From: Ptychodera flava
Taxonomy: Eukaryota
Length of the DNA: 64,000 nucleotides
Direction: 5' to 3'
NCBI RefSeq assembly: GCF_041260155.1
Contig: NC_091937.1
Location: forward strand, 6,640,626 to 6,704,625
The position numbers and the translations under genes are program-made. Below, one piece after another: positions 5,376 to 63,582 of this stretch (within the stretch, counting starts at the first letter, position 1; each line of letters opens with the position of its first letter). The notes beneath the pieces are model-generated. The model saw only the letters and a list, made by a program, of their open reading frames with translations, searched no databases and was not told where the DNA came from.

Positions 5376-5685
5376 TTAAGGTAGAATGTGCCTTGGCGAC
5401 ATAGTTGACTCAAATTTCTGCAATACTATTCTGATCTTCCACTGTAAGGGCTCATTCTGAAGCTGTTTGTGAAAGAAAAACTTTTACTTTCTTAGTTTTT
5501 TGAAAATCCAACATTTAATGTTTCCCTCACAGAGTTAACACAGGAATGACGGCCATTTTGAATTTCAAATAATGCAAAAATGTTGGGTAATTTGTTTCGC
5601 CAGTTCCAAACTTTGCATGGTGACCCTGATTTTTCGACGTGCATACTACCTGAAGCTCATTTGCATATGAAAAATGACAGAAAAT
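5376..5685 (-). mobile_element. SINE-like ~340-bp interspersed repeat, minus-orientation copy
   Basis: Contains the reverse complement of the family core gaaattcaaaatggctgccatccctgtgttaactctatgg and of the tail ...cacattctaccttaa. Confidence 0.7.
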
Positions 5686-7133: not shown

Positions 7134-8376
7134 TTAGCTCCGCTGTCAGCGACGCGGAGCTTATCAAATAGGTTGATTATCCGTCGTCGTCCGTCGTCCG
7201 TCGTCCGTCGTCCGTCGTCGTCCGTCGTCCGTCGTCGTCCGTCAACAATTGCCTTCTCCTCTGAAACCACAAGTCGAATTGCTTTGAAATTTTATATGCA
7301 GTTCACTTGGGGTGACCTCACTTCAGTTTGTTCAAATCATGGTGAAATTTGCATATTTGTATTTTTGGGGCATTTTTTGGTGTTTTTGGTAAAAAAATCT
7401 TCTTCTCTGAAACCGCTCGTCTGATTGCTTTGAAATTTGATATGCAGTTTGCTTAGGGTGACTTAAACCAGATTTGTTAAAATGGTGGTGAAATTTGCAT
7501 ATTTGTATTTTTAAGGCAATTTTGTCATTTTTGGTAAAAAAATCTTTAAAATCTTCTTCTTCAAAACTACAAGTCAGATAGCTTTTATATTTGGTACATA
7601 TGTCCCTAGGGATGATCTATTTCAGATTTGTTCAAATTGTGCAGAAATATGCAAATTTGCATTTTTAAGGCAATTTTTGCCATTTTTGGTCAAAAAATGT
7701 ATTTCTCAAAAAGTACTGGTCTGACAGTTTTGAAATTTGGTATACAGGTTTCTATAGATGAACTAAGTAATATATATTGAATTTCTGATGAAATCTGTAA
7801 TTTTGTATTTTTTGAGCAATTTTTGCCATTTTTGGTCAAAAATGTGTATTTCCAAAACTACTTATCTGATAGCTTTGAAATTTGGTATACAGGTTTCCAT
7901 AGATGAACTAAATGATATTTATTGAAATAATGATGACATCTGCAATTTTGAATTTTAGGGCAATTTTTCTCATTTTTGGTCAAAAAATGCGTTTCTCGAA
8001 AAGTACTGGTCTAACAGCTTTGAAATTTGGTATACAGGTTTCTATATATGAACTAAGTGTGATATTTTGAAATTATGATGAAATCTGCAATTTTTATTTT
8101 TGGGGGCAATTGTTGCCATTTTTGGTCAGAATATTTTATTCTCAAAAACTACTCATCAGATAGCTTTGGTTGACATGTTCTTAGGGATGATCGAATGTGA
8201 TATATTCAAAGTATGATGAAATCTTCAATTTTGTATTTTTGCAGCTTATTTTAGCCACTTTTTTCTGGCCACTGCATTGAGTTATCAAAGATTTCCACCT
8301 TCTTCATCAACATGTGTCAAAAATAGTTATTCTGTACATAAACACAGCGGAGCTATATCGGCCGCTAGGTCGCTTG
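7134..8376. mobile_element. non-autonomous element, family A: hairpin-forming termini, a (CCGTCGT)n microsatellite at 7181-7243, an internal ~150-bp tandem array (7 units, 7240-8270) and a conserved 3' tail
   Basis: Left terminus tAGCTCCGCTGTcagcgacGCGGAGCT and right terminus ACAGCGGAGCT are inverted. The tail ...ccaccttcttcatcaacatgtgtcaaaaatagttattctgtacataaacacagcggagctatatcggccgctaggtcgcttg recurs at 17020-17115 and 39050-39140. Confidence 0.6.
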
Positions 8377-10029
8377 TTTGAGATTAATAGGGAAACAGTC
8401 TGTACAGCAGAAGTGTACCTATACCACTGGGGTTACATAAAACAGTCTATACAGCAGAAGTGTACCTATACCAGTGGGGTTACATAACAAATGAAATATG
8501 CAAGGTTGTTGGCACAAACTCTACTCTATTGTTAAAGCCAATAAGGGCCTGGGCAGTAATAAGGGGGGGGGGGGCGCCAGGGAAATTCAGAAACTTGGTG
8601 TGTGGAAAATATCGACCCAGCTGACCCCTCAAACTTTTGCATAGAAACAGTGACCTTCCGAAATTCAGTACGCTCCCCTGCCTCCATCATAATGCCAGTA
8701 TATATATAAAAGTGATGATGATGATTATTATTATTAATTATAACAATTATCAGTGAATATAAATTATTTAAAAAACTACATTATACAGTGAAGTAATAAA
8801 CCAGAATATCAAAGTACAATATCAACTTTTCTGCAACACAGAAAAAAAGGACAGCTTGTGACACTAAGTGATCAGTGCCAAAGCTTTTATGTCCAAGGTC
8901 AAAAGGAGGTGTCCCCCCTGATGTACAAACTTTGGTGGCAGTTTAGGTTACTTTTGAGACATGTACTTGGCCTTGAATATGAAAGTACAACATTATAACT
9001 TTCCGGCAACACAGAAAAAAGGGGATCTTTTGTAATAAAAACTGTGCAGTGGTCATTTTAGGGTTGGGAAGGGGAGGTGAAAAAGGATGTTGTCCCCCTC
9101 GCTTTGAAGAAACTTTTGAAAATTTCGCTATTGGAATTGTTTCATTAGATGATATTGGACTATACTTTTAGACATAAGGGGTGTTCAATGCTTGTGACAA
9201 AATGATTAGCTTTATCATGTTTAAAGCAGGTAATTAACATAGGGTCATTTTTATAATTTTCTACTAGTTTCACTTGAGTACTTGAAGAAGCAACATGGGT
9301 GAATAAAGACAGTTAGGGGTGGACCATTTGATATCGGGGGGGGGGGGGTCTGGAAGATTTAAGAGGTTGTACTTTTTTTGTTCAAATTTTTTTTCACTCT
9401 CTGATTACTGGTAACTTTTTTTCTCGCACTCCTCATTTGGATATTTGGATACTTTTTTCCCCAACAACAAATGTACAGTCCTCTTCTGTGTGTGGAGTAA
9501 AATGTTGCACATTAGATAATCAGTTGGAACACAATACTTGTACATATATTTACCATTTACCATCTAACTAACATATGGGAAAACAATTGAGCAACTGATG
9601 AAGGAATTGCACATTGGTTCCGAAACACCATCAGGGAGCCGTCATTATTTATGGCCTGGGGGAGGGGGTCGGAGGAATTTCATCCGAAACGCCAAAATTT
9701 CTAGTAACCACCTCCCCCTCTCCCTGGTAACCATAGTGAATTTGAGTAACCCCCTCTCTGACTCAGAAATTTTGACTGATTCCCCCCCCCCCCACTTAGA
9801 AAAGTTAAATACCAATACATGTATATATAAAATAATACAGCACAAAGTTACAAAAATATACAGATATAAAAGCTGATGGTCTATAACCAGTATCCAACCA
9901 TATAGTATTGTTTAATTTGGATGTGAATCATGACAGGGTTTTCACTAGGATATTTGACTAGACAGAATTTGAAAGTACAGAGGGTAGAACACGCGAGATC
10001 CTGAGGGGAAAAGCATCAGAGGGGCTGTC

Positions 10030-14452: not shown

Positions 14453-14814
14453 GTGAGTGGTAACACGTAGGACTTTTTTCAATTACTCGCATGAAAAGTT
14501 TATAAAATATTGCACTGCTGATAACTTTCAATAAATTTCACTCCCAGAGCGCACAAATTTGCATATGAAATGTATGGTGTAGGTGTGCAAATTTGTGACG
14601 AGACTGAAAGCAGAAGAAAATGTTTACATAGCAGGAAAAGATCAAACATTTGGTATTAATTTTTTGCATGTAATTTGTAGGATATTTCACGCAAGTGATA
14701 TGGTACCAACTATTTTTAGAAAATTCAGTATTGCCCACAACCACTTCATGAAAAATATTCACACTAAATGTACACTTCTAATTCAAATTGAGGAAATAGT
14801 CATTTATCAAGGTT

Positions 14815-15500
14815 TTTAGCTCATATTTGGTTTTATATATAAATACCAAAAAGAGCTTATATGATGAGTCTAAATGTCTGTATATTTGTGGGTATGTGCG
14901 GATGTATGTCCGTCACACACAAAGGCTCCCATACCGCCAAAGCTACCGTCTCAGTATTTGGTGTACAGGTAGATGTAGGGGTTGAGATGTGAATTTGTTC
15001 AAATGAACACATCAGTGTCAAAAATGTGCAAATGAGGTAAGAAAAAGCGAAATTCTGAAACAGGCTTGAAACAGGCTTACTCCACTGACTTGAGTCATTT
15101 CCTGTTATTGTCATTGAACTGTTACATATTAACAGACCTGCTCAAACCATAGACAGTAGAGGGGAGGAAGACCGTCAGTAGAGGGGAGGAAGACCGTCTA
15201 TGGTCAAACTGAGGCAGTAAGGGGGCTAGCTGCCTTTCTGCTATGCATGTTGCTAAAGTTGACCTCCAGTACCTAAAGTTTCAGACCTTAATTACTTTTG
15301 TCATTCTTGTTTTTCTGGTTTAAATATTTCTTGTTGTTTTTCTGGTTGTACTGTGCAGAAATCATTGTCATAACATCAACGTAGAATTTTCCTGCACTGA
15401 ACAGATAGAAACAACATTTATTGTTGATCTTTGGTACCCATACTGGTATGTACCAATTCTGATCAAATTTGAGCGACACCGTATAATTGCGGTATTTTTC
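14815..15500. mobile_element. family B non-autonomous element (~690 bp) in PARP4 intron 2
   Basis: Starts ttTAGCTCATATTTGGTTTTAtatataaataccaaaaagagcttatatgatgagtc. It is about 90% identical over its length to 26373-27061. Confidence 0.7.
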
Positions 15501-16611: not shown

Positions 16612-16639
16612 GTGAGTGTTTCAAGTTAATATTTTATTT

Positions 16640-17115
16640 TCTATATTATGAATTCATGAATTATGCATATTTGTATTTTGAAGCTGCAATTTTTGTCATT
16701 TTTGGTAAAAAAATCTTTAAAAATCTTCTTCAACAGTGATAGTTTTGATATTTGGTATACAGGTTTATGAGGATGATCAAAAAGTGATATATTGAAATTA
16801 TATTGAAATCTGCAATTTTGTAGTTTTGGGGCAATTTTTGCCATTTTTGGTCAAAAAATTTGTTTTCTTTAAAACTACATGTCTGATAGCTTTGATATTT
16901 GGTAGACATATTCTTAGTGGTGATCTTAATGTGACATGCTCAAATTATGACGAAATGTTCAATTGTGTATTTTTGCAGCTATTTTTGCCATTTTTGGTCA
17001 GGCCACTCTGAAGTGAGCTGTCAAAGATTTCCACCTTCTTCATCAACACATGTCACAAATAGTTATTATCTACATAACACAGCAACGCTATATTGGCCAC
17101 CAGGCTGCTTGTCAA
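16640..17115. mobile_element. family A copy (2.5 tandem units plus conserved 3' tail) in PARP4 intron 3
   Basis: Units gcaatttttgccatttttggtcaaaaaat...ctgatagctttgatatttggta. Tail atttccaccttcttcatcaacacatgtcacaaatagttattatctacataacacagcaacgctatattggccaccaggctgcttg. Confidence 0.6.
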
Positions 17116-18419: not shown

Positions 18420-18531
<112 letters not shown>

Positions 18532-23579: not shown

Positions 23580-24182
23580 GTTTGTTCATCTCAATCCCAT
23601 AATTTTGTGTCACAAAGGTGTTTGCTTTTTATTGAAAAAAGTGTATTTCTGTAAATAGATGGCTTTCAGATTCTATGCATACAAGCAAGACACTGCCTTT
23701 ATAAATAATTACACCACACTGTACCAGTAACTTATCACTAACTTTGAGTTTTAGTTTTTTCACTGCAAACGTGCACTGCCAATACAATAGTCAAAGTACC
23801 CGATAGGTTTGTCACTCATTGCAGATATACAGAACCATTTACTTGGTCATGTATTGCCCAACACCCCTAGCAGTTGCGCCACTCCATCAAGTCATCAAAA
23901 TGTAGTGATTTATCTTATTATTGTAAAATAAAGGGATGTACTTAACTGTTTATTCAGTTTCATGAGGTAAAAATGGCTGGGATGGCAAATGTCTCTCACA
24001 AAAGTTTACTTTTTAGTTTGCTCATGTCTGGCCAAATAGAGTCTGGGTAATAAGAAAATATGACTGATACCATTGGACAAACTGCGTTAATGTAGGTAAA
24101 TGTTGGATCAAAGTTTGTATGCCGTATATTCTTACTAAGCCGTGTTGGTCTACTCTGCCTTGCTCAGTGCGCCACCTGTTAA

Positions 24183-24538
24183 GGTAGTTTGAGCCTCGAA
24201 AATGAAATACTTAAAGTTTTGCTCAAACTTTCCTCAAACAAACTTTTAACCATTCTCTTTCAAAATCTAGAAAAAAATCGGGAGTCACTGTGCAAATTTT
24301 GTTACTAGAGAAACAAATTACTCAATATTTTCTGATATTTAAAATTCAAATTGATGGCCAACCCTGTGTTATCTCTATGGGAAAAGTAAAATCCCAATTT
24401 TCACAAAACTAAGCCGGTGAAATGTTTATTTACTCCATAAGCTCCAAAATTAGCCCCCGCAAGTGGTAGGCGAGAAGAATATTGTAAAAGTTTGAGAGTC
24501 GGAATATTTGTCTCCTCGGCCCGGCATGTTCTACCTTT
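24183..24538 (+). mobile_element. SINE-like family copy (plus)
   Basis: Head gcctcgaaaatgaaatacttaaagttttgctcaaactttcctcaa, core gatggccaaccctgtgtta, tail ggcatgttctaccttta. Confidence 0.7.
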
Positions 24539-24899
24539 ATTGGCAGCATGTGCAATACCAGTACATCTACATTCCTCACCAGATATAAGAGTCTTTTTAA
24601 TATTTTACGTTGCATCTGTGCCATGCAAATTCCATGTTCACATTGTATTTCATCAATGTTGCATCAGCAACTTGGATTAATTATCTATGTTATGTATTAG
24701 CTTAGATGTACACAAGAAAAGCTTCAGTTGTCCACAGTGCACACACAATATCAGACAAACAATTTGTCATGATGCCTGTGCCAGTATAGTATTGAGAATT
24801 CAATCTATTCATAGTTTTCACACAGTTTTATAGATGTATGTTAACACTACAGTACATGCATGGAAGATGTATTTTTAAAGTATCTATATTTTTCAACAG

Positions 24900-26166: not shown

Positions 26167-26350
26167 TACAAGTGCTAAGTACAGTTTTGTCAGTGAGGTC
26201 AGGGGAACCCGCTTTATGCTGGTCAGTAGAGTTGAACTGGGGCAATGTAAAGATCTGTACAAATCCGATGCAGACATGATAGCTCCTCCCAATGGATACA
26301 ACAGTGTGCACGGCGTCAAGGGAACAGACCAACAACCATCAGATTTCAAG
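26167..26350 (+). CDS. PARP4: PARP4-like exon 10 (catalytic): STSAKYSFVSEVRGTRFMLVSRVELGQCKDLYKSDADMIAPPNGYNSVHGVKGTDQQPSDFK
   Basis: Acceptor tctctgcatttcAG and donor AAG|GTAAGA. Human: LSTSIKYSHPGETDGTRLLLICDVALGKCMDLHEKDFSLTEAPPGYDSVHGVSQTASVTTDFE. Confidence 0.9.
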
Positions 26351-26372
26351 GTAAGAGTGGAAATATCCATTT

Positions 26373-27061
26373 TTAGCTCATATTTGGTTTTGTATATAAA
26401 TACCAAAAAGAGCTTATATGATGAGTCGGTGGCGTCTGTATGTCTGTATATTTGTCGGTATGTATATACGGATGTATGTCCGTCACACACAAAGGCTCCC
26501 ATACCGCCAAAGCTACCATCTCAGTATTTGGTGTAGAGGTAGATGCAGGGGTTGAGATGTGAATTTGTTCAAATGAACACATCAGTGTCAAAAATGTGCA
26601 AATGAGGTAAGAAAAAGTGAAATCCTGCAAATGTGCAGGAGTGATGGCATGCCAGTAAGAAACAGGCCAACTCCACTGATCTTGAGTCATTTCCTGTCAT
26701 TGTTTATGAACTGTTACATATTAACAGACCTGCTGAAACCATAGACAGTAGAGGGGGGGGGGAAGACCGTCTATACTCAAACTAAGAGGGGCTTGTTTCT
26801 GCTATGCATGTTGCTAAAGTTGACCTCCAGTACCTAAAGTTTCAGACCTTAATTACTTTTGTCATTCTTGTTTTTCTGGTTTAAATATTTCTTGTTGTTT
26901 TTCTGGTTGTACTGTGCAGAAATCATTGTCATAACATCAACGTAGAATTTTCCTCCACTGAACATATAGAAACAACATTTATTGTTGATCTTTGGTACCC
27001 ACACTGGTATGTACCAATTCTGATCAAATTTGAGCAACACCATATAATTGCGGTATTTTTA
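26373..27061. mobile_element. family B copy, beginning 23 bp downstream of the PARP4 exon 10 donor
   Basis: Near-identical to 14815-15500, including ...cctccagtacctaaagtttcagaccttaattacttttgtcattcttgtttttctggtttaaatatttcttg.... Confidence 0.7.
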
Positions 27062-29345: not shown

Positions 29346-30332
29346 ACTACCTTAATGGTTGAACATGCCTTGACACATTAAGTGTTTTCCACAGCTTGGA
29401 AAACAGGGGGGGGGGCAACCATTTTACATAACAATGCATAATTTGCATATTCTTTTGTTGTGTAAATAGTATTTTTCTATACAGTCATTAACATATGAAA
29501 ACATTGCTCCAAAACAGTAGGGTAGCCCACCCCTTAAAATACCCTTTTGGAGACCCCTGCACATAGTTTAAACTTTTGCAGTTACTTTAGTCCGGGAAAC
29601 TTTAACTCAGTTTCTTTCATATGACATTTATAAGATCAGCTATAAACTTAGTTGTAATGGGAAAACTAAATTTTTTGTTTTCTCAGAAAATGAGACAATA
29701 CCAACATTATTTACTCCAGTGGCTTAAAAATTAACTGACAAAGGCGACACATCAAAAAAGTATAGCAGTGATTTGAAAGTCTGAAAAGTGCTGTGTGGGT
29801 CCATGTTACCTTGGGGTAGAACATGCATCTCACCAAATCAAGAACATAAATCAGGGGTCGCCATGCAATGTTTGGAACTAGAGAAACAAATTACTACCTG
29901 TATGGATATAGAACTTCAAATTTGCTGCCATGCCCTGTGTTAATTTTATGGGAAAATACAACATTTTTCGATATTTTAAAGGAGACAGTGAAAGTGTTTT
30001 AGCTTCAAGAGCTTTAAAATGAAAGAATGGTAGACTAGAAAAAGTATTAAAACAATTTGAGAGTCCACATATCTTTCTCTGAGCCACATTCTATCTTAAT
30101 GCTGGACTTTCTCACAGCCCCTGGTTTGCTACACAATATGTAGTTACTGTATCATATATTCATACTGTGATATGTCCTCAATGGTCTTCGCAGGCCAGCT
30201 CTATGCCAACTGTGTAGCAACACTACCCCAGCTTGTTGAGAGCCTGGCTATGGTGAGCTCAAAATCAGGGCAGGAAAAGACCACGCTGTGTACAGCCAAT
30301 GTGGGACTTTAGAGAAACTGCTTTAATTTAGT

Positions 30333-30880
30333 TAGTGCCTCAAAATTGAAATACTTCAACCTTTGCCCAAACTTTCCAATAAGGAAATTTTAAATCCCTC
30401 CATTTTGAAATCAAGAATAAAAATCATGGGTAACCATGCAAATTGTGGTAATAGAGAAACAAATTACCCAATATTTATGAAATTCAAAATGGCTGCTAAC
30501 CCTGTGTTAACTCTATGGGCAAAAGTGAAGTCACCTTGCTGAAAGCTTTATTTACTCTGTTAGCTTTGACCCTTTGAGCGCCAAAGTCAATTTCTATCGC
30601 CTTTATAAAATGTACCCAAGTCCAATTTTTTCAAATTTTTGCCAAAATTTTAATGAAAAACTGTAGTCCATGAAATGTGATGTCCGTTTGGACCAAAATT
30701 ATCAAAAAAATTACAGAAAAATTCATAAAAATTGTTAAAATGTTGCACTAAAATTCTGATGTGAAAAATTACAGCACTTAAAAGGTTAAAATGAGCCCCC
30801 ACATATGGTATACCAAAACAGAATACTTAAGTTCCAGAGTCAGAATATCTCGTCCCAGGGCACATTCTGCCTTGATACAT
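30333..30880 (+). mobile_element. SINE-like family copy (plus) split by a nested piggyBac-like MITE at 30566-30789
   Basis: SINE head and core run 30333-30565. The SINE tail aatgagcccccacatatggtataccaaaacagaa...cacattctgcctt resumes at 30790. Confidence 0.65.
30566..30789. mobile_element. second, more diverged copy of the piggyBac-like MITE, inserted at a TTAA inside a SINE copy
   Basis: gctTTGA|CCCTTTGAGCGCC ... GCACTTAAAAGG|TTAAaatga. The interrupted SINE sequence gcttTAAaatga is continuous once the element is removed. Confidence 0.6.
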
Positions 30881-32388: not shown

Positions 32389-32807
32389 GTAAGTTAGGGC
32401 GTCTGAATACTCTGCTTGTCTTTAATAGGGTGTCTGAAACTCTGCTTGCCTTTACTCTTGACAGATAGCTTGTATCTTCATTTATGCTACGTTAAAATGT
32501 AGCTGTGTGTCTCATAGTTTATGTGTCAGTGTGCCTGTCTGTCAGCATTAACACTTTCTAGCGCTTTGTACAAAATCTGTATATCTTTCATTCGCTCTCT
32601 CTTTCCTCTTCAGTCTCTCTGTCTCTGTGCTTTTCTCTTTGTGAAAAGTCATCCATTGTAAGTCTTTCTTCCTTTACCAAGTGGGCAGAACCACAAGAAA
32701 AATATTATTACATGATTGAGTTGATGTCCAATGGATAGACATTTAAGAAATTACATAATATGACCTATCAGAGTATGTAATGTAATATTATATGTATCAT
32801 TAAGGTA

Positions 32808-33155
32808 GTATTACCTCAAAAGTGAAAGACTTAAACTTTTGCCCAAACTTTACTCAAGAAACTTTCAACCATTCTCTTAAGCAATCAAGAACAAAAATAA
32901 CGAGTCCCTCTGCAAAGTTTGGAACTAGGAAACAAATTATCCAACAATTAGTAATACCGGTATCTGCAACTCAAAATGGCTGCCATCCCTGCATAAACTC
33001 TATGGGGCATGAACATTTTTGATTTCAAGAAAATTATGACAGTGAAAATTTTCTTACAGCTTTAAAGTGAACCACCACAAGTGATAGATTAGAATAGGAT
33101 TGAAAAACCTTCAGACTCTCAATCTGTCCCAGACGCATGCATTCAACCTTAATTA
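32808..33155 (+). mobile_element. SINE-like family copy (plus), ending about 45 bp upstream of the exon 14 acceptor
   Basis: Head agtgaaagacttaaacttttgcccaaactttactcaa, core caaaatggctgccatccctgcataaactctatggg. Confidence 0.7.
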
Positions 33156-35077: not shown

Positions 35078-35170
35078 GTATTTGATTTATATGCCATTTT
35101 CTTGTGTTTTTCAATAGATTTTGAAGCAAATTTAATAGCTACATGAGAAAGTTTTCTACAAAGTTACGGT

Positions 35171-35501
35171 AGTTTGTGCCTCAAAATGAAGACTTAAGCT
35201 TTTGTCAGGCTCTCCTCAAGCAAACTGTCAACCATTCTCTTTCAAAATCAAGAATAGAAATTGGGTGTCACCATGCAAAGTTTGGTATTAGAGAAACAAG
35301 TTATCTTCCATCAAATTGGCTGCCATCCCCGTATTTACTCTATGGGGAAAACAAAATTTCTGATTTTCACAAAACTAAGCTGGTGAAAACTTTATTTAAT
35401 CCATAAGTTTCCACATGAGCCTCCTCGAGTGGCAGGCCAAAAGAATTATTTTGAAATTTTTAGAGTCTGAATATCTTTCCCAGAGGCACATTCTACCTTA
35501 A
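35171..35501 (+). mobile_element. SINE-like family copy (plus)
   Basis: gtgcctcaaaatgaagacttaagcttttg ... ggctgccatccccgtatttactctatgggg ... cacattctaccttaa. Confidence 0.75.
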
Positions 35502-37048: not shown

Positions 37049-37390
37049 GTAAGTTGTTGCAGCTTGGCTTATAAACTTTTCTGCTCTCAACAAAGCAGGT
37101 TTTATCAAAAAAAGTTACTCTCTGCTGCTGTTACGGTCTTTAGTCTTTAAATTTCTCTCCACAATACATTTCATAATATGAGATGCCAGTGGTGAGACAG
37201 TACAAGCTTGCCTTACTGAGGATATTTGCATGAAGGCATGCTGTGTATTCTGTGGTGTGTTGGCACCTGGAGTGATCACGAAGAAACGAAATACAGGAGT
37301 AAAGCTTTCAGAAATGTGATATTTTGTATTATTAAAAAGTACATTAAGCGTTGAAATCTTCCCGGCCGAAAGATGTTTCTTTTTTTAAGG

Positions 37391-37741
37391 TGTATGCACC
37401 TCGAAAGTGAAAGACTTAAACTTTTGCTCTAACTTTCCTCAAGGAATCTTTTAATCATTCTCTTTCAAAATCAAGAATAAAAATAGGGGGTCACCGTGCA
37501 AATTTTGGTACTAGAGAAACAAATAACCCAAGATTTACCGATATTAGAAATTCAAAATGGCCACCATCCCTGTGTTAACTCTATGGAGAAAAATAAAATT
37601 TTCGAATTTCGAAAAAGTAAGCCGGTGAAAAGTTTTCTTTCACCAAGAGCTTTAAAATGAACCCCATATGTGGTATATCAGAAGAGCATTGTAAAAGTTT
37701 GAGAGTCCGAACGTCTGTCCCCGAGGTGCGTTCTACCTTAA
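37391..37741 (+). mobile_element. SINE-like family copy (plus)
   Basis: Full-length copy: cacctcgaaagtgaaagacttaaac ... gccaccatccctgtgttaactctatgg ... gtgcgttctacctta. Confidence 0.75.
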
Positions 37742-38000
37742 GTATAATAATAATAGCTTGCATACCGTCATTTTCGTTTTGCTTATAAGATACTTGTTGT
37801 TTACAAACAAAAGTAGTTTGGGGCACAAGAGCTCATTAACATAAGATTATTGTATAATGTTTTCTGTATTGCACTGCAGTGCAAATACCAATTGTACGTG
37901 CACTATTAAAAAGTACAGTGAGCGTTGAAATCTTGCAGACCGAAAGATGTCTCTTTCTTTAAGTAGTATAATAATAGCTTGCATACCGTCATTTTTGTTA

Positions 38001-39290
38001 GCTACTATAGACTATAGTCTATAGAAGCTATGGGATGGGTACCGTCCGGCGTCCGTCGTCAGTCTGTATGTATGTATGTATGTATGTATGTATGTATGTA
38101 TGTCCGTTTGTGAGGCGTCCGTCCACTCAAATATCTTGAGAACCGCAGTACTTACTGATTTGATATTTGTTGTGTAGATGAAAAATACGATTTTGAAACT
38201 ATTTTTTTTAACTTTTTGATATTGTTGAAAATAGGCAAATTAATGCCAAAAAAGGTGTTTTTGGTAAAAAATCTTCTTCTTCATAACCGCTGGTCAGACA
38301 GCTTTGTTATTGGTATACAGGTCCCTAGGGGTAACCCAACTTAGACTTGTTCAAATTGTGATGAAATATGCAAATCTGTATTTTTAAGGAATTTTTTGTC
38401 ATTTTTGGTCAAAATTTGACTTACATTGTATGTAATTCTTGTACTGTATAAACCCTATCAATTCACCCAGAAAAAAATAATTAATATGATTTTAAATAAT
38501 TGAATTAATTAGGAAATCATCAAAGGCAAAATAATTTTAGTGTAGAATTATCAGAAAGTTCAACTTTTTGACGTTTGACAGTTCATAGTGAAATGCTTAC
38601 CATCTTAGAGGATTAAAACATGTAAAGGCAACTTTCCTGAATCCCAACTTTGACATATTCTGAACCGTCATTTATTGTGCCCTGTATGTTATCTCAAAGA
38701 AATTGCTCAAAATAGTCAATAGAGATAGAGATAGAGAAAGTTCTAATTTCCATTTATGGTTGACTTGGTAAGGATAAAATAAAATTACTTTTTGAGGAAA
38801 AAAATAGAGTGGTCAATTAAAAGAGTGGTCAAAGTGATAGGGTTTTTATGGTAAAGCTGGGCTGTACAAAGATTCCTCATGTGCTATTTATAGCAATTAT
38901 GCAATCTGTGTAAACAGTGCAATGAAAGTGTAACATGATTCCTTATAATGCTTTTGATGACCTTGAACTTCTTAAGTTTCAAACCTTTGTCTCTTCAGTG
39001 TGCTTTCTCTGAGTATGTACAGTCTCAACTTATTAAACAGAACTTACAATGTTAATCAAAGATATCCACCTTCTTCATCAATACATGTGTCACAAAAGGT
39101 TATTCTCTACATAACTCAACAGAGCTCTGTCAACTGTTGAGTTGCTTGTTCTTTCAAAACCGCTGGTCAGACAGCTTTAATATTTATTTACTTGTCCGTA
39201 GGATGACCTTAGTGAGATAATTTCATACAGTAAGGAAATACTTAATTTTGTATCCATGTCTATAGTAGCTTCAGGGACTTTGGCCCTATT
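38001..39290. mobile_element. family A copy in PARP4 intron 17: head, (TGTA)n at 38065-38101, tandem units, about 650 bp of unrelated internal sequence, then the conserved tail at 39050-39140
   Basis: ccgtccggcgtccgtcgtcagtc(tgta)n ... ggtaaaaaatcttcttcttcataaccgctggtcagacagctttgttattggtatacagg ... tail aaagatatccaccttcttcatcaatacatgtgtcacaaaaggttattctctacataactcaacagagctc. Confidence 0.55.
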
Positions 39291-40092
39291 CGTTTTTCTT
39301 GTAAGATACTTTTTGTTTACAATGAAATGTAGTCTGGGTCACAAGAGCTCATTAACATAAGATTATTGTATAATGTTTTCTGTATTACACTGCAGTGCAA
39401 ATACCAATTGTACATGCACTCCAATGCAAGTAAACTGTGGTAATACACATATTTTCACCAACCAACAAAATCTTAAACATTCCACCCAGAAATGATATTA
39501 TGAACATGCATTTCCTATACTTTAAACAGAAAACCAACAAGAACCAACTTTTCATTCTCAAAAAAGTCATGAATGTAGATAGAACTACTAATAGAGTAAT
39601 TATTAAACATTTTGTTGATATTCTTTCGGCAAATGAAATATAACCAGTAATGAGTATAATGTGAAGTCTCAAACATTTTTCATATGTTGGCTAGAGCGTG
39701 ATGAATATCTTCAGGAAGCATGTTTTTTACTGTACAATGTTACAGTTATTAGGGTACTGATACCTACACAGCAGAAGTAATTTGTCTGGTGTATTTGACT
39801 ACCGAAATGATGAAAAATCTGTGAGCTAAAAATTTACTGCTTTCAAGTCATTTGTCCAAATTTCCTCATGCAGAGATAGTCCCTTGCCACCGCAGATCGA
39901 CAATTGAGTTGTTCTAAAATTTGCCAGGAAAGTCAAGTATGTCTCTATCAGCACTCATTTACTCAAATTGTATGTAGATGAACATTAGACATAGTAGACG
40001 TAAGCTCAAGGTGGAGAAAGTTTACTTTTCCCCCTGTAGTAATGGTACTTTTAAATTCATTATCTCATTCCTTGCAAATTGCCTTTCTACAG

Positions 40093-40360: not shown

Positions 40361-40744
40361 GTAAAACACTTGCTCCCATCAATTTATTTTTTATCTTGTT
40401 TATTTGATTCTGTCGTTTTGGAATATCCCGTGCCATTTGTCCACTTGTGACTCATGTATTGCGAGAGTACTGTACTGATACTGCTGTAGACTAGCTTGCC
40501 CTCACGTTGCATTTAGACTATACTATATGCTTTTAATTCTACCCCACACTGCCTGTAGTCTACCCTAACATTGCCTTTTGAGGTACATCTCAATATCTCA
40601 TGTACTGCAGAATTCTACAAGCAAAAGTGAATTCATTCAAATTGATGACCATCCCCTGACCCTGAGACTTGGTATTGACATCAATTTCCAAAGAATTCAT
40701 TCATGTGATGATTTGTGATATATTGTTTGAAGTTCCTCATTAAG

Positions 40745-41073
40745 GTAAAATGTAAAAATTTGCTCTAATTTCCCTAAATGAAACTTTCAACCATATTCTT
40801 ACCAATCAAGAATAAAATCAGGAGTCACTATGTAAAGTTTGGTAGTAGAGGGTGAACCAACAACCTGACATTTACCAATATTTGAAATTCAAAATGGCTG
40901 CCATTCCTAGCTGTGTTAACCTTATGAGGAAAAATAAAATCTTTGATTTAAAAAAAAACTGCAATAGCGAAATTTTTCTTACTGTAAGAGCTTTAAAAGA
41001 AACACCCACAAGAGGTAGATCACAAAATTGTAAAAATTTGAGTCTGATATCTGTCCCCAAGGCTCGTTGAAAG
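40745..41073 (+). mobile_element. SINE-like family copy (plus)
   Basis: aaaatggctgccattcctagctgtgttaaccttatgagg ... ctgtccccaaggctcgtt. Confidence 0.7.
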
Positions 41074-44148: not shown

Positions 44149-44377
44149 TTAACCCTTTGAGTGCCAAAGTCAAATTTTGTCGCCTTTATAAATATACCCC
44201 AGTCAAATTTTTCAGATATCTGCCAAACTTTTGATAAAAACTGCAGCCAATGATTTGTGATGTCCGTTTGGTCCAAAATTATTAACAAAAAATAATAATG
44301 CTGAAAAATTTATAAAAATTGATAAAATGTTGCACTAAAATTTTGGTGGGAAAAAATTACAGCACTCAAAGGGTTAA
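44149..44377. mobile_element. piggyBac-like MITE (~221 bp) with 16-bp terminal inverted repeats CCCTTTGAGTGCCAAA / TTTGAGTGCT..GGG and flanking TTAA target-site duplication
   Basis: gcTTAA|CCCTTTGAGTGCC ... GCACTCAAAGGG|TTAAgtt. The TTAA duplication and CCC... termini are the piggyBac hallmark. There is no internal ORF. Confidence 0.7.
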
Positions 44378-48989: not shown

Positions 48990-49890
48990 TTGCACTAAAC
49001 TTAATAAAACTTTGAGCTCTAAAAGCACACAATGAGGCATGTCAGTATTGCATCAATTAATTGCTAATTTGCACATTTGATGAACTTTTGTAATGAGGGT
49101 GACATGTCCAAAATACTACAGCAAATTTGATGAAACTTGGTAAAGATCTTTAACACACAGTCTCATAATAGTGTACAAAGACATGTAGCAGTGACATGCT
49201 AATTTGCATGTTTGACGAACTTTCCTAATTTGTAAGCTATGTCCAGAAACATTGCATCAAATTTGATGATACTTGGTACAGATGTTGATCTTTCAGTACT
49301 GTAATACTATGTAAAGACATTAAGCAGTATCATGCTAAATGATTGCTAATTTGCATTTTTGGTGAACTTTTATAATTAGTGTGATTTGTATAGAAATGCT
49401 GCATCAAATTTGATGAAAAGTGCTACAGATGTTGATCTCCAGGAGTGTTATGGCATGTAAAGATATGCAGTAGTATCATGTCAATTAATTGCTGATTTGC
49501 ATGTTTAATGAATTTTCGTAATTAGGCTCATATGTCAAGAAATGGTTCATCAAATTTTATGAAACTTGATACAGATGTTAAGCTCACATTGCTTTAACAG
49601 TGAATAAAGACATTCAGCAGTGTCATGTTGATTAATTTGTAATTTTCATATTAGATGAACTTTCCTAATTAGAGTGATATGTCCAGAAATACTGAATCAA
49701 ATTTGATGAACTTGGTACAGATGTTGATCTCAGTACTGTAATACCATTCATTGACACTTAGCGGTATCGTTTATAAAATGTGGTACAGGTGATAATCTTT
49801 CAGTGTTATAGTAGAATGCAAAAATGTTTGGCAACATGCTGTCGATTAATTATTGACTTATTTAATGACCTTTCGTAATTAAGTTGGCAG
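48990..49890. repeat. ~145-bp tandem repeat (about 6 units) in the intron between the 48053 and 50601 exons
   Basis: Recurring ...catcaaatttgatgaaacttggtacagatgttgatct...gcagt.tcatg.t.attaattgctaatttgcat.tttgatgaactttcctaatt.... Confidence 0.7.
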
Positions 49891-52497: not shown

Positions 52498-53104
52498 ATT
52501 CTTCAAAATTTATGTTGAAATACAAACTATTTTCACTTTGTTTTGTTAACAAAGTCATTCTTATCTAGACTAAATATTAGTTGTCAACATTAACATTGGA
52601 TATAATGTACAGGTGGGCTGTGCCAACAACTTGTACACCAGACACTGGGGCATATTTGAGACAAGAACAAGAGCTATTTTATCAACAGATCAAAAATACT
52701 GCTCAGGGTTATATGTATCGAAGATCATAGCTGATGATGCTTTCAATAACACAAGCTATGATATTGCATATCAAGTAGTAGATATACGATATTGATAATA
52801 TTGATGTGGATTGTTTTCAGCAGATATTGACTTTGAAAAGGCTATGTGTGCAAGATTACTAGGAAACACCCAATCAAGGCCATCACCAGTAAGTAATCTC
52901 ATCAATTCCATATATGCCATATTTGCCTTTCCAAAATTCAGCATCAAATGTTTTGATTTTGGAGCCATGAAAGTACTTTTTATGTTTTGATTTTGACTTT
53001 TTCCAAGGTAAAAGCTTTGTTAATGTTTACTAAATATGCAAGGGAAAACAGAAAAAATGAGATGTCTTTTATTATCTTCTCAAGGAAAAATAGGCATTTT
53101 AATT

Positions 53105-53600
53105 TTTCTGGTAGACTTAACTCAAAGACTGGCAGCCATAATTTCTGTGTGAACACAATGGGGAAAATTTGAATTACTAATTTGTGTTCAACAATTAGAA
53201 GACACTGAAACTTCACTTACTTCAAGAGCTTCAAAATGAGGCCACACAAGTGGTAGATCAGAAAAGTATTATAAAATTTTGTGAGTCCAAATATCTGTCA
53301 CCAAAATGCATTCTACCATTAGCTCTTTGTGAGTCCAAATATCTCTCACCAAAGTGCATTCTACCATTAGCTCTTTGTGAGTCCAAATATCTCTCACCAA
53401 AGTGCATTCTACCATTAGCTCTTTGTGAGTCCAAATATCTCTCACCAAAGTGCATTCTACCATTAGCTCTTTGTGAGTCCAAATATCTCTCACCAAAATG
53501 CATTCTACCATTAGCTCTTTGTGAGTCCAAATATCTCTCACCAAAATGCATTCTACCATTAGCTCGTTTTGTAAGACCTTTGAATGATGCTGTATCACAA
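53105..53600 (+). mobile_element. SINE-like family copy (plus) whose 3' tail has been tandemly amplified (see repeat 53281-53568)
   Basis: Core gactggcagccataatttctgtgtgaacacaatgggg, then six copies of the tail motif. Confidence 0.7.
53281..53568. repeat. 48-bp minisatellite, 6 copies (gtgagtccaaatatctctcaccaaagtgcattctaccattagctcttt)
   Basis: Exact period of 48 seen in the sequence. It explains track ORFs 53250-53635 on three frames with 16-aa peptide repeats. Confidence 0.9.
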
Positions 53601-56420: not shown

Positions 56421-57009
56421 GAGTCAGTCATCATCTGCATCTGTTCAGATCTTGAGGAGAAATTTTTATCATTTATTCCAAATTTCAGTCGGTCATAAGG
56501 ACCGACATGTTGCTAAAAACTTTCGGCTCGACGAGAAATCTGTCGGTCTCGGACCGTCGGACCAACGTTAATTTTGCACACTGTTCACAAATCCCATGGT
56601 TTCCTGTCTCCTGGTAGCTGGGAACCTGCCCCAAACAGTGGGAAATAATTATCCAAAACACAGTAACCATACTGCATACTACTATTGCTACATTGCAAAG
56701 CATCCTTTGAATGACAACCATTTAGGTAGCTGTGTCTTTTTCTCCAGCAACAGCAACAGTCTTTTTGTGTTCCTGAGAATGCTTCAAATGCATAATACTT
56801 TGCTTACCAAGTCTTTGCATTTCAGACGTCATCAATCTCTATCTATCTCATCCTTTCATTCCTCTATCAGTAGACCAAATTTGTGGAGTTGATGAATTGT
56901 TAATCACCAATCCAAGTCTTAGAAGTTTATGTGTGGTCATCTAGAACTGAATAAAATCTTGTAGATTTGACTTTTGCAAATAAAAATTTTTTAATAATAA
57001 TTATGCTTT

Positions 57010-58990
57010 TAGCTCACATTTGGTTTTACCAATGTGAGTTTATCGTATAGGCTGAAGTCGATGGCGTCTGTATGTATGTGTGTATGTATGTATGTATGTA
57101 TGTATGTACAGTATGTCCGTCAACATCAAAAACACGCAAACCGCTGCACGTTTCAGCTTGGTATTTGTTGTGTGGATGCATCCTGGGCTATAGATGGGAT
57201 TTTGTTCAAATGAAGTCTGCATTGCCAAAATTATGCAAATGAGCTTACAAAATGTGAAAATGGTCAAGAATTAATAACTCAAGAACTGCTTTTTTGATTG
57301 CTTTGAAAATTTGTGTGCAAGTACCTTAGGTTAACCTTATACAGTTTTATGAATATTGTGAAGATATCCTTAATTTTGTATTTTTGCTGAATTTTTTGGT
57401 GATTTTTCTCATTTTCAGTAAAAATTCTTCTTCTCTGAAACCGCCGGCCCAATCGCTCTCAAATTTGGGTTGTCTCTTTGCGAGGGTGTTACTCTTCTAA
57501 TTTGTTGAAATTATGACAAAATTGGGAAAATTACTATTTTTGTGCAATTTTGTCATTTTTGGTCAAAAAATCTTAGACAGTGTTTCCTTTTTAAAACCCC
57601 TGGACAGACAGCTTTCATATTTCGTACACAGACGTACAGAGATGACAATAGTTAGATATGTGGAAATTGTCCTGAAATATAAAAAATTGTATTTTTAAGA
57701 CAATATTGTCATTTTTGGTCAAGAAAACTTTATCTCAACATTACTTGTTTGATAGCTTTGTAATTTGGTATAAAGTCCCGAAAGATGTTATTAGATAAAT
57801 TTTCTGCTCAAAGTGTTGGGAAACCCCAAAATTTGTATATTTTAGGTACTATTCTCAGTTTGTGACCTTAAATGACCTATACTAACCCAAGATATGTTGT
57901 GAGACAATTTTGAAGGCTGTGAACATAATTTTGTCATATTTGATACCAATTTGTAGGAAAATTTGATCCAGAAAACAAAGCTGAGGTGATTTTTTTCATT
58001 TTGGACCAATTTTTGCAACTTTTCTATGTAAGACATACAAAAACTGATGAGAAATTTGGATCCAGGATAATTCAAGATGTTGTAATCACCACCCACAGTG
58101 GAAGGCATTTCACTATCTGTAACTAACTTAAGTGGCTGTTTACATAAGAATGATAACACTCATGGCATTAATTAAAAATCTCCAAGGTTGTAAATGTACT
58201 TCCTGTCATTTGGTCTTATGTAATACCAAGGGGTGGAACATTTGATATGCAGGAGGGGTAGGGTTTAGAAGATCAATGATGTAGCATTACTTTTTTACCA
58301 GATCCCTTGTGCATTTTTTGCCCACTCCCACCTTTTCTTTTTATCAAGCCTTCTCTGTTTTTTGTTGTTGACATTTGCTTATGTATTTAGGATCTGCTTC
58401 TCCCATTGCTATAGAAGTTGATATGCTTGTTCCTCAGGATGACCTCCAGTACCTAAGTTGGAGACCTTCCTGGTTTAAATATTTCTCGAATGGACCAATT
58501 CAAACCGAATGTGAGCACATAGTGTCCTTGACGGTATTTTCACTTTAATGCACTGAAATTTCCCAATAACGATTGCTTTGGTGTTCGATGCAATTGTTTT
58601 TACGGATGCCCTGTTTCATATTTGTTAAACCTATTTATTTTCTGATGGCGTTTGTCCATTCATTTCAAATTTGGTTTCTTTCTTTGCTCTTGGGAATTAT
58701 GGGGCCATGCAGATATGTCAAAATGGTGATGAAATTTGCAAACTAACATGTAAAATTTTTGAGCCAATTTTCTCGTTGTCCATCATAACATTTCCCACCA
58801 CATAGCCATGTACCTGACTGCTTTCAAGTTTGGCTTGTAGGTTCCTTGTTACATATACTACTGTATCCAGATTTGTTCAAATGATGATGAAAATGTGTGT
58901 AACAAACTTCTTGTGTCTCATTGTTTATCTTACTGGAAACAACATCTCAAAAACCACTCAAACGAAAGCTTTTAATCATTCTTCATCTTT
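57010..58990. mobile_element. composite of family A (head tAGCTCAcatttggtttta, (GTAT)n at 57068-57108, tandem units) with a family B tail fragment at 58440-58520
   Basis: Same head, microsatellite and unit architecture as 7134-8376 and 38001-39290. It has the unit motifs attgctttgaaaatttg and atttttggtcaaaaaatctt. Confidence 0.5.
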
Positions 58991-59165
58991 TTTGTAGAAA
59001 AACACTTCATATTTGTCAAAAATAACAACATTTTGGGAGTATGAATCGCTTGATAGCATGTTTAGTATTGAGGTTCCTATGGATGAGCTCATCAAGTTAA
59101 CTTATACGTTGAATTAAATTAAGTCTTTTGGGCTGGTTTTCTAAAACATCAGATACTTCATTTAT

Positions 59166-59328
59166 TAGCTCATATTTGGTTTTATATATAAATACCAAAA
59201 AGAGCTTATATGATGAGTCTGAGTGGCATCTGTGTCTGTATATTTGTGGGTATGTGCGGATGTTTGTCCATCACACACAAAGGCTCCCATACCGCCAAAG
59301 CTACCGTCTCAGTATTTTTTAAACCCCC
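59166..59328. mobile_element. family B truncated copy (5' 160 bp only)
   Basis: tAGCTCATATTTGGTTTTAtatataaataccaaaaagagcttatatgatgagtc...gctaccgtctcagtattt. Confidence 0.6.
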
Positions 59329-60289: not shown

Positions 60290-62400
60290 CATTTTAGTAG
60301 TGCATGTTTGACATGTTAGGTCGGAACTAACGTGACCAAAAAAGCCAAACTTGCAAAGCTATCGTGTATCGTGCAGACCCAACATATCCGCACCTATCGT
60401 TTCTAAAATGTCTAACGTGTATGTCAGGTCGGAACTAACGTGCCTAAAATGCCAAACGTGCAAACCTATCGTGTATCGTGCAGACCTAACGTTAATAACC
60501 TATGTCTAACATGTATAGCATTTTAGGGCGTACAAATTAATAAGTCCTATTCTATCATGCCAATCGTGCAAACCTATCGTGTATTGTGCACACCCAACAT
60601 GTATCCTATCGTGTATCGTGCAGACCTAACGTGTACGGACCTAAAGTGTCTAAAATGTCAAACGTGCATGTCATTTTAGGTTCTCAACATGGGTCAAGTC
60701 TATCATGCCAATCGTGCAAACCTATCGTGTAACGTGCCGACCTAACGTGTACGGAACTAACGTGTCTAAAATGTCTAACGTGTATATCATGACTGTACCA
60801 TTCAACTTATCTGGAGACCCTAAAATGACATACACTTTAGACATTTTAGACACGATAGGTTTGCATGATTGCCATGATAGCTCTTGACTCAATTAGAGAC
60901 CCTCATTGACATACACGTTTGACATTTTAGACACGTTAGCTCTGTCAACGTTAGGTCGGCACGTTATACGATATGTCTTATGATTGCCATGATACAATTC
61001 TACTTATCTTGAACCCTAAAATGACATACACTTTTGACGTCTATAGACACAATGTCTAACGTGTATGTCGTTTTAGGTTGTCAACATGAGTCAAAATCTA
61101 ACATGCCAATCGTGCAAACCTATCATGTATCGTGTAAACCTAACGTGTACGGACCTAACGTGTCGAAAATGTCTAACGTGTATGTCATTTTAGGTTCACA
61201 ACATGGGTCAAAATCTATCATGCCAATCGTGCAAACCTATCGTGTATCGTGCAAACCTAACATGGTCAGCACGTTACACGATAAGTTTGCACGATTAGTA
61301 TGATAGATTTTGTCTCAATTACATCCTAAAATGACATACACGTTAGACATTTTAGACACTTTAGCTCCATAAATCTTAGGTCAGCACCTTATACGATATG
61401 ACTCAAGATTCACGTGATGGCCTACAAACACGGTAGGAGACTAACTCTATCACGCCAATCGTGCAAACCTATCTTGTATCGTGCAAACCTAACGTGTACG
61501 GACCTAACGTGTCTAAAATGTCTAACGTGTATGTCATTTTAGGTTCTCCACATGGGTCAAAATCTAACATGCCAATCGTGCAAACCTATGGTGTATCGTG
61601 CACACCTAACGTGTACGGACCTAACGTGTCTAAAATGTCTAACGTGTATGTCATTTTAGGTTCTCAACATGAGTCAAAATCTATCATGCCAATCGTGCAA
61701 ACCTATCGTGTATCGTGCAAACCTAACGTGTACGGACCTAACGTGTCTAAAATGTCTAACGTGTATGTCATTTTAGGTTCTCCACATGAGTCAAAATCTA
61801 TTATGCCAATCATGCAAACCTATCGTGTATCGTGCACACCTAACGTGTATGGACCTAACGTGTCTAAAATGTCTAACGTGTATGTCATTTTAGGTTTTCA
61901 ACAGGACTCCAATTTCTATCATGCCAATCATGCAAACCTATCGTGTATCGTGCAAACCTAACGTGTACGGACCTAACGTGTCTAAAATGTCTAACGTGTA
62001 TGTCATTTTAGGTTCTCCACATGGGTCAAAATCTATCATGCCAATCGTGCAAACCTATCGTGTAACGTGCAGACCTAACGTGTACGGACCTAACGTGTCT
62101 AAAATGTCTAACATGTATGTCATTTTAGGTTTTCAACATCGGTCAAAATCTACCATGCCAATCGTGCAAACCTATCGTGTATCGTGCAAACCTAACGTGT
62201 ACGGACCTAACGTGTCTAAAATGTCTAACGTGTATGTCATTTTAGGTTCTCCACATGACTCCAATTTCTATCATGCCAATCATGCTAACCTATCGTGTAT
62301 CGTGCAAACCTAACGTGTACGGACCTAACGTGTCTAAAATGTCTAACGTGCAGACTTTTACAGTGTTTAGTCATGCACGTTTGTCCTACACGTTTGGGTT
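60290..62400. repeat. ~117-bp satellite array, about 17 units, with orientation-switched segments at 60800-61050 and 61290-61400
   Basis: Unit gtctaaaatgtctaacgtgtatgtcattttaggttctcaacatgggtcaaaatctatcatgccaatcgtgcaaacctatcgtgtatcgtgcaaacctaacgtgtacggacctaacgt. Regular period 61500-62340. Flanked by direct repeats gctcgctacctgtagaccatgcc at 60229 and 62487. Confidence 0.85.
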
Positions 62401-63332
62401 CTATAATGTACAATGGCATACAATTGCCCATAGCACGATAGCTTCAACAATGTGAAACGTGCATTTTTACCAACTACTGGCCATAGCTCGCTACCTGTAG
62501 ACCATGCCGTGTGAACAGGAAGAATGTTTGCTAGATTGTTTAAAAAAATACAAGAACTTTAACAGAAAAACCATGGGGAAGCATTACAAGACTCAATATC
62601 TTATTTCCATATTTAGCAACACAATATATTCATGTTCCTCAAAGCCCTTCAAATTTTTACATCGGCAGCATCACTTCGCAGGCGGAGAGCTGCAGCCATT
62701 TTTTGTTTACATTGTTTACCATCAAAATGCAAATATAGTTCGGGAATACTCCAAACCGATGACGTTTATAGTGCATATCTCGACATTTACTGTGAAATAT
62801 CACAGCTGATATTTTACGGTAAATGTCACTATCGTGAAGTGATATGGGCATGGGTATATGATAATATGACCTTGAATGACGAAATAAGAAAGCGTTTGTG
62901 TATAGCTGTTGAAAGCACCAGGAGTATAATTATTATAACACGCCACACACAAATTTTTTGCCAAGTTCATAAGAACAAGATCCATGATGAGAAAATGGAT
63001 AAAGCTAGCTACACTCTAGCTCAAAATATCAACTCAAGCTGGATTAAATATTTTCCTTTTTGCATTCTATTAGCATATCAATTAGAAAATATAAGTTCAA
63101 GCAGGGATGTTAATTTGTGTGCCAAGAATATTTTCAATGTCTCACCACAAAGAAATTATTACATCAACAACTGCTGTGGAGACCATTTACAATTCTTGTA
63201 CAGTGTGTGCATTTAAGGTAGTATGTGCCGCAAAAGTAAGACTCAAACCTTCCTCGAAGTATACATATGTCCTTGTGGGAAATTACAGTGCTCGATGCTA
63301 AAGCAGAGTGTTATGAATAATAATACAAAAAT

Positions 63333-63456
63333 ACTTCAAGTACAAAGTAATGATATCTGTTACTTAAGTTTCATGCATCCTGCATCCTTCTTCTGTCTGA
63401 TGATAGCAGGATGCATGAAACTTAAGTAACAGATATCATTACTTTGTACCTGAAGT
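63333..63456. repeat. near-perfect inverted repeat: 51-bp arms with one mismatch and a 22-nt loop
   Basis: Left arm acttcaagtacaaagtaatgatatctgttacttaagtttcatgcatcctgc. The right arm is its reverse complement, with cagg in place of caag. Loop atccttcttctgtctgatgata. Confidence 0.85.
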
Positions 63457-63466
63457 AATTTTGTGT

Positions 63467-63582
<116 letters not shown>

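Follow-up and report, generated by a model that had tools for sequence, protein, structure and literature searches.

A short repeat in the window, the stretch of 64,000 nucleotides of Ptychodera flava DNA analysed here, is interrupted by a second element, and the locus raises the question of what the two elements are and in which order they arrived. An earlier note on this DNA had placed the structure at 30333-30880 and read it as a piggyBac-like MITE inside a SINE copy. The nesting at this place stands; its outer bounds are better drawn as a host body of 30327-30871 between TTAA (30323-30326) and TTGA (30872-30875), and the host repeat proves to be a MITE in its own right. The insert occurs twice in the window, as copy B inside the host and as copy A elsewhere.

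30323..30326, plus strand: left TSD of the host MITE, TTAA
30327..30565, plus strand: left part of the host MITE; degenerate 5' TIR TTTAGTTAGTGCCTC against consensus GGTAGTTTGTGCCTC; nhmmer, hmm positions 4-268 at 30330-30570, E 7e-62
30566..30569, plus strand: left tetranucleotide of copy B; TTGA, the duplicated TTAA with one substitution
30570..30785, plus strand: copy B, putative piggyBac-type MITE of 216 bp, CCCTTTGAGCGC...GCACTTAAAAGG, TIRs decayed; 83% identical to copy A over its full length
30786..30789, plus strand: right tetranucleotide of copy B; TTAA, the host's own, right copy of the duplicated target
30790..30871, plus strand: right part of the host MITE, ending in the 3' TIR GGGCACATTCTGCC; nhmmer, hmm positions 264-350 at 30786-30871, E 3.5e-16
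30872..30875, plus strand: right TSD of the host MITE; TTGA, that is TTAA with one substitution
44149..44377, plus strand: copy A, putative piggyBac-type MITE; TTAA 44149-44152, 221-bp body 44153-44373, TTAA 44374-44377

The insert and its two copies

Copies A (44153-44373) and B (30570-30785) align at 83.2% identity over 232 columns (BLASTN of 44149-44377 against 30566-30789, E 1e-54), and neither has a further BLASTN match within the 64-kb window. A MAFFT alignment that takes in 15-18 bp of flanking DNA shows high identity throughout the elements, first C to last G, and an abrupt loss of it directly outside the flanking tetranucleotides, which are TTAA/TTAA in copy A and TTGA/TTAA in copy B. 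The homology claimed in the earlier note thus holds across the length of the two copies and stops only at these tetranucleotides. The structure TTAA-CCC...GGG-TTAA that it described at 44149-44377 is likewise present, with perfect TSDs enclosing perfect 12-nt TIRs (CCCTTTGAGTGC...GCACTCAAAGGG, 12/12 complementary). The TIRs had been given as 16 bp long; the inverted repeat is indeed perfect, and reaches 17 nt with C and TTAA counted in, but the TIR proper measures 12 nt, the figure of 16 being TTAA plus these 12. The TIRs of copy B are still complementary at 9/12 positions, read directly from the MAFFT alignment. A 16-mer from the termini (TTAACCCTTTGAGTGC), allowed up to three mismatches, occurs in the window at the four ends of the insert family and nowhere else, against 0.73 occurrences expected by chance. 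Both copies, of 216 and 221 bp and the only two in 64 kb, are devoid of ORFs.

Only one position is highly conserved in piggyBac-like TIRs, the first base C, and the opening triplet is C[C/A/T][C/A/T], usually CCC; loss of the terminal G abolishes excision, and apart from these features the length and sequence of the TIRs differ widely (PMC5381638). The insert family carries this end signature (first base C, C[C/A/T][C/A/T], last base G), and on TSD and terminal nucleotides alone (CCC...GGG, TTAA) it would be classed as piggyBac-type. It resembles npiggy1_Mm of the mouse lemur, a non-coding element of about 220-240 bp with TTAA TSDs and TIRs of 12-13 bp that start with CCCTTTG and end in GGG; the lemur piggyBac MITE, given as 240 bp, starts TTAACCCTTTG... 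(PMC2997546). Past the first seven bases, however, the TIRs (CCCTTTGAGTGC here, CCCTTTGCACTCG there) and the internal sequences are unrelated. Like other piggyBac-derived MITEs, the insert family would presumably depend for its mobility on an autonomous piggyBac element with matching ends, acting in trans. Human MER75 and MER85 are piggyBac-derived MITEs as well. The insert TIR plus subterminal 21-mer has 0 DNA matches in metagenome contigs and 0 in viral contigs, and in a literature string search CCCTTTGAGTGC and TTAAGGTAG turned up in primers and unrelated constructs alone. A conserved 21-mer of the host family does occur in five metagenome contigs, where homology does not extend beyond the seed, and these were set aside as chance matches.

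The presence of an active or recently active piggyBac transposase, which the earlier note took the two copies to indicate, finds no backing in their state: they lie K2P 0.157 apart, the TSD of copy B is mutated and its TIRs have fallen to 9/12. Among the 24 TIR and 8 TSD positions, copy A has 0 changes and copy B 4. Much of the divergence may have accrued on the branch of copy B, in which case copy A may be considerably younger, the sample being small (n=2), and the intact ends of copy A make later activity possible. No ORF in the window exceeds 194 amino acids.

Order of nesting

Removal of copy B together with one tetranucleotide restores a host repeat of about 330-350 bp, and about 10 other copies of it run through without interruption. 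The joined host flanks align through the junction without a break to at least eight of these, with junction-spanning matches at 37399-37756, 24179-24540, 17865-17526, 35170-35499, 32800-33153, 29355-29046, 40731-41068 and others. The restored pre-insertion site reads GCT-TTAA-AATGAG, and TTAA stands at the homologous position in 6/9 other host copies, from which it follows that the host already had a TTAA here, which the insert entered and duplicated. The nested insertion is real, and of the two elements the host is the older. The divergence values agree with this order, mean pairwise K2P being 0.357 within the host family and 0.157 between the two copies of the insert family; the interrupted host copy at 30327-30871 lies at K2P 0.245 from its family consensus and is among the most diverged copies. 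The continuity of the host upon excision of the MITE and its greater age, both put forward in the earlier note, are hence borne out by the junction-spanning alignments and by the uninterrupted copies and K2P values; the empty sites that it proposed to look for in other host copies are represented by the TTAA at the homologous position.

The host repeat and its family in the window

The boundaries of the host family emerge from an alignment of ten copies with their flanks, in which the element begins with GGTAGT.TG.GCCTC directly after a TTAA and ends in ...GGCACGTTCTACC directly before another, conservation being nil outside. The family TIR is GGTAGnnnGTGCCTC and the consensus termini are 5'-GGTAG...CTACC-3'; the 5' end (GGTAGTTTGTGCCTC) matches the reverse complement of the 3' end (GGTAGAACGTGCCTC) at 12/15 positions, and every copy with an intact end has G as its first or C as its last base. 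The 19-nt motif TTAAGGTAGNNNGTGCCTC, searched with up to three mismatches on both strands, gives nine matches at element ends, compared with 0.25 expected; in copies on the plus strand the hits lie on the plus strand at 5' ends and on the minus strand at 3' ends, and in minus-strand copies the arrangement is reversed. The flanks read exactly TTAA in 13/22 assessable cases, most of the others being one base off (binomial P < 1e-20, with a background TTAA frequency in the window of 0.0065 per position).

The boundaries are also seen from an empty site. Some 500 bp downstream of the copy at 37389-37737, at 37899-37999, its two flanks are found again with a single TTAA between them, and the joined flanks match this site at 88% across the junction (E 1e-27). 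This local pair of filled and empty sites proves the boundaries of the host family. The pair is supplied by a local duplication of about 100 bp (37325-37384 plus 37742-37778 versus 37899-37999), adjoining which 132 bp at 37773-37904 recur at 39289-39420 with 92% identity; the MITE at 37389-37737 may itself lie inside another repeat unit.

Three copies (5380-5633, 29828-30094 and 40730-41068) have internal deletions with the 5' TIR kept. Internal deletion is the pattern left by abortive gap repair in DNA transposons, while 5' truncation is that of retroposons. The host repeat is a second TTAA-duplicating MITE family, of which the window contains about 14 copies and fragments, roughly 3.7 kb or 6% of its length, mostly between 24 and 41 kb (nhmmer). 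Apart from the interrupted copy they include the following:

24183..24535, plus strand: full-length copy; flanks TTAA/TTTA
32804..33148, plus strand: full-length copy; flanks TTAA/TTAA
35168..35497, plus strand: full-length copy; flanks TTAC/TTAA
37389..37737, plus strand: copy nearest the consensus, K2P 0.115; flanks TTAA/TTAA; filled site of the empty/filled pair
37899..37999, plus strand: paralogous empty site of the copy at 37389-37737; same flanks, single TTAA
28986..29351, minus strand: full-length copy; flanks TTAA/TTAA
17528..17874, minus strand: copy with degenerate 5' end; flanks TTTT/TTAC
5380..5633, minus strand: internal-deletion derivative; both termini kept, 5' TIR fused to consensus position about 93
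29828..30094, plus strand: internal-deletion derivative; 3' flank TTAA; extra fragment at 29658-29786
40730..41068, plus strand: copy with 5' flank TTAA, a small 5' deletion and the last 7 bp or so missing
53104..53317, plus strand: partial copy, 3' end amplified into a 48-bp minisatellite at 53278-53565
63213..63262, plus strand: solo 5' end; TTAA followed by GGTAGTATGTGCCGCAAAAGT...

Copies between 30 and 38 kb are regularly spaced, for which a large tandem duplication with a period of about 2.4 kb was considered and rejected; homology between neighbouring copies stops at the element boundaries, and they are therefore independent insertions. The minisatellite at 53278-53565 consists of six 48-bp units at 98% identity, each unit being made up of the last 40 bp or so of the probably Kolobok-type MITE (see below), with the 3' TIR among them, and of 8 bp of flanking DNA (ATTAGCTC), so that the tandem array grew out of a MITE terminus after its insertion. 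The solo 5' end at 63213-63262 is followed by unrelated DNA, then by a palindrome at 63330-63460, whose arms measure about 50 bp, and immediately behind the palindrome by a (TA)56 microsatellite at 63470-63582; a second such array, (TA)54, lies at 18422-18528.

History of the locus and rival readings

The window is AT-rich (64%), has the look of animal nuclear DNA and holds exons of a PARP catalytic domain at about 26.2 and 28.7 kb and of a VWA_3 domain at about 40.1 kb, all on the plus strand (Pfam), their intervals being 26.1-26.4, 28.7-28.8 and 40.0-40.4 kb. Together with a BRCT-like ORF seen by eye on the same strand near 14.5 kb, these domains identify the putative gene as PARP4 (vault PARP)-like, and the nested element sits in one of its introns. 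Two PARP exons, joined and compared with a set of 5.8 billion proteins, gave 0 hits, with just 10 candidates sharing words with them, so that the species is probably absent from that set. An akirin-like exon (353 to about 700, by eye) and weak 14-3-3-like and actin-like exons (46.7 kb and 51.6 kb) also lie on the plus strand. Other repeats share the window. A repeat of about 745 bp is interspersed at 14791-15499, 26349-27060, 57007-57259 and 59162-59317 with 86-91% identity, one copy beginning immediately 3' of a PARP catalytic-domain exon. Blocks of a tandem repeat of about 146 bp occur in five places (7253-8168, 16625-17000, 38141-38414, 49062-49747 and 57261-58023), and several share non-tandem flanks (8284-8378, 39055-39150 and 17021-17089 being similar), which suggests an interspersed element with an internal satellite. 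A 117-bp satellite occupies 60300-62350 in over 11 copies that are about 80% identical, with a higher-order period of 352 bp at 93%; the long repetitive ORFs that run through it are almost certainly not genes.

Kolobok elements have a TTAA-specific 4-bp TSD and 5'-RR and YY-3' termini, 'unlike piggyBac' (PMC9587614, summarising Kapitonov and Jurka), and the abundant T2-MITEs of Xenopus, in which AGGRR follows the TTAA, are counted among the non-autonomous Kolobok elements (PMC6004289). The host family has the 4-bp TTAA TSD, the RR...YY termini and the TIRs, and it departs from the piggyBac end rule of C first and G last; a TTAA duplication with 5'-GG...CC-3' ends fits Kolobok rather than piggyBac, and on TSD and terminal nucleotides alone (GG...CC, TTAA) the family is probably Kolobok-type. 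It shares with the Kolobok superfamily the TSD, the character of the termini and the presence of TIRs, but is known only as a non-coding derivative, whereas Kolobok is defined by a DDD/E transposase with C/DxxH (PMC9587614). The Xenopus T2-MITE/Xmix elements are similarly short, very abundant and long-lived, with TIRs, a TTAA target and purine-purine termini, and the Xstir tandem-repeat family that arose from Xmix parallels the 48-bp array derived from a host 3' end (PMC6004289). The T2 motif has AGGRR after the TTAA where the host family has GGTAG, similarity of sequence between the two is not to be expected, and we infer the Kolobok link of the host.

The reading that we favour, at a probability of roughly 0.8, is that an intron of the predicted PARP4-like gene received two cut-and-paste insertions, one upon the other, a piggyBac-type over a Kolobok-type element. 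A non-coding inverted-repeat element of about 350 bp, moved most probably by a Kolobok transposase acting in trans, would first have inserted at a TTAA and duplicated it. Later a non-coding element of about 220 bp with the 12-nt TIRs described above would have entered the host's internal TTAA (GCT-TTAA-AATGAG). In the piggyBac mechanism staggered cleavage occurs at TTAA, the 3' ends of the transposon are joined to the target, and gap repair duplicates the TTAA. The insert would accordingly have been moved in trans by a piggyBac-type transposase that bound its TIRs, excised it and integrated it at TTAA with a 4-nt stagger, whose repair would have produced the duplication. Both elements then decayed neutrally in place, the left TSD of the insert changing to TTGA, its GGG to AGG and the GG of the host to TT.

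Several other readings have to be weighed against this layered history. The host family might also be a piggyBac-superfamily MITE, with non-canonical G-initial termini, and a single transposase lineage might have moved both elements. The two families have TTAA target specificity in common, and piggyBac TIRs vary in length and sequence (PMC5381638); yet the G first and C last of the host go against the highly conserved C and G of piggyBac ends, the TIRs of the two families have no sequence in common, and we consider the reading unlikely. That the host family was actually moved by a transposase of the piggyBac lineage, possibly the one that served the CCC...GGG family, seems very unlikely. Were it true, it would break the rule of conserved terminal C and G in piggyBac ends and would imply cross-mobilisation between elements whose present appearance places them in two different TTAA-specific superfamilies.

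Host and insert could alternatively form a composite subfamily that moved as one unit, the nesting having taken place elsewhere and at an earlier time and the present locus being secondary. The window contains only one interrupted host copy, and nothing there contradicts a composite origin; against it, no second composite copy is found among the roughly 14 host-family copies and fragments in the window, and the host copy, which at K2P 0.245 lies far from its consensus, is in keeping with an old, simple copy that was hit in place. A composite origin is improbable.

The size of the duplication bears on a further reading, in which the host duplicated TA (Tc1/mariner or pogo, 'Stowaway-like') or TTA/TAA (PIF/Harbinger, 'Tourist-like') and TTAA is made up of the TSD and bases of the element. 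TTAA being a palindrome, the empty site at 37899-37999 is formally consistent with a duplication of 2, 3 or 4 bp, and taken alone it fits TTAA with GG...CC ends as well as TA with AGG...CCT ends. The outer 5' T and the outer 3' A are, however, conserved across independent insertions in nearly all copies, and all four positions are present in 13/22 flanks, which a TA duplication would not predict, so that the 4-bp reading is favoured; a 3-bp duplication would give asymmetric element ends. Both shorter duplications are highly improbable. With four base pairs duplicated, a different superfamily with 4-bp TSDs, such as Sola, may be an alternative to Kolobok for the host family.

The weakest reading is that of the earlier note, in which a retroposon transcribed by Pol III and inserted by the LINE machinery was later hit by a piggyBac MITE: the host resembles SINEs in being short (about 350 bp), non-coding, interspersed, highly repeated and old, features common to SINEs and MITEs, but it is unlike them in its terminal inverted repeats, its constant TTAA flanks in place of variable-length TSDs, the single-TTAA empty site, short variants that are internal deletions rather than 5' truncations, copies that end in ...GTTCTACC and pass directly into TTAA with neither an A-rich nor a microsatellite tail, and the lack of a Pol III head, and it can practically be dismissed as a SINE. 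The window contains 0 tRNA genes (ARAGORN) and 0 Rfam matches at gathering score, and neither the best copy nor the interrupted host copy shows similarity to tRNA, 7SL or 5S RNA in Rfam even at E<=10.

The structure is a well-known kind of event, part of the ordinary repeat history of an intron, and it leaves current understanding unchallenged; both families may or may not already be catalogued. The useful outcome is a corrected classification of the host, together with a pair of filled and empty sites within the window. Two lessons for annotation follow from the locus, namely that TTAA duplication is not in itself diagnostic of piggyBac and that shortness and abundance do not suffice to make a repeat a SINE. 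The nesting provides a clean relative date for two TTAA-specific DNA-transposon lineages, and the host family, concentrated as it is in introns of the putative PARP4-like gene, adds greatly to the size of introns here.
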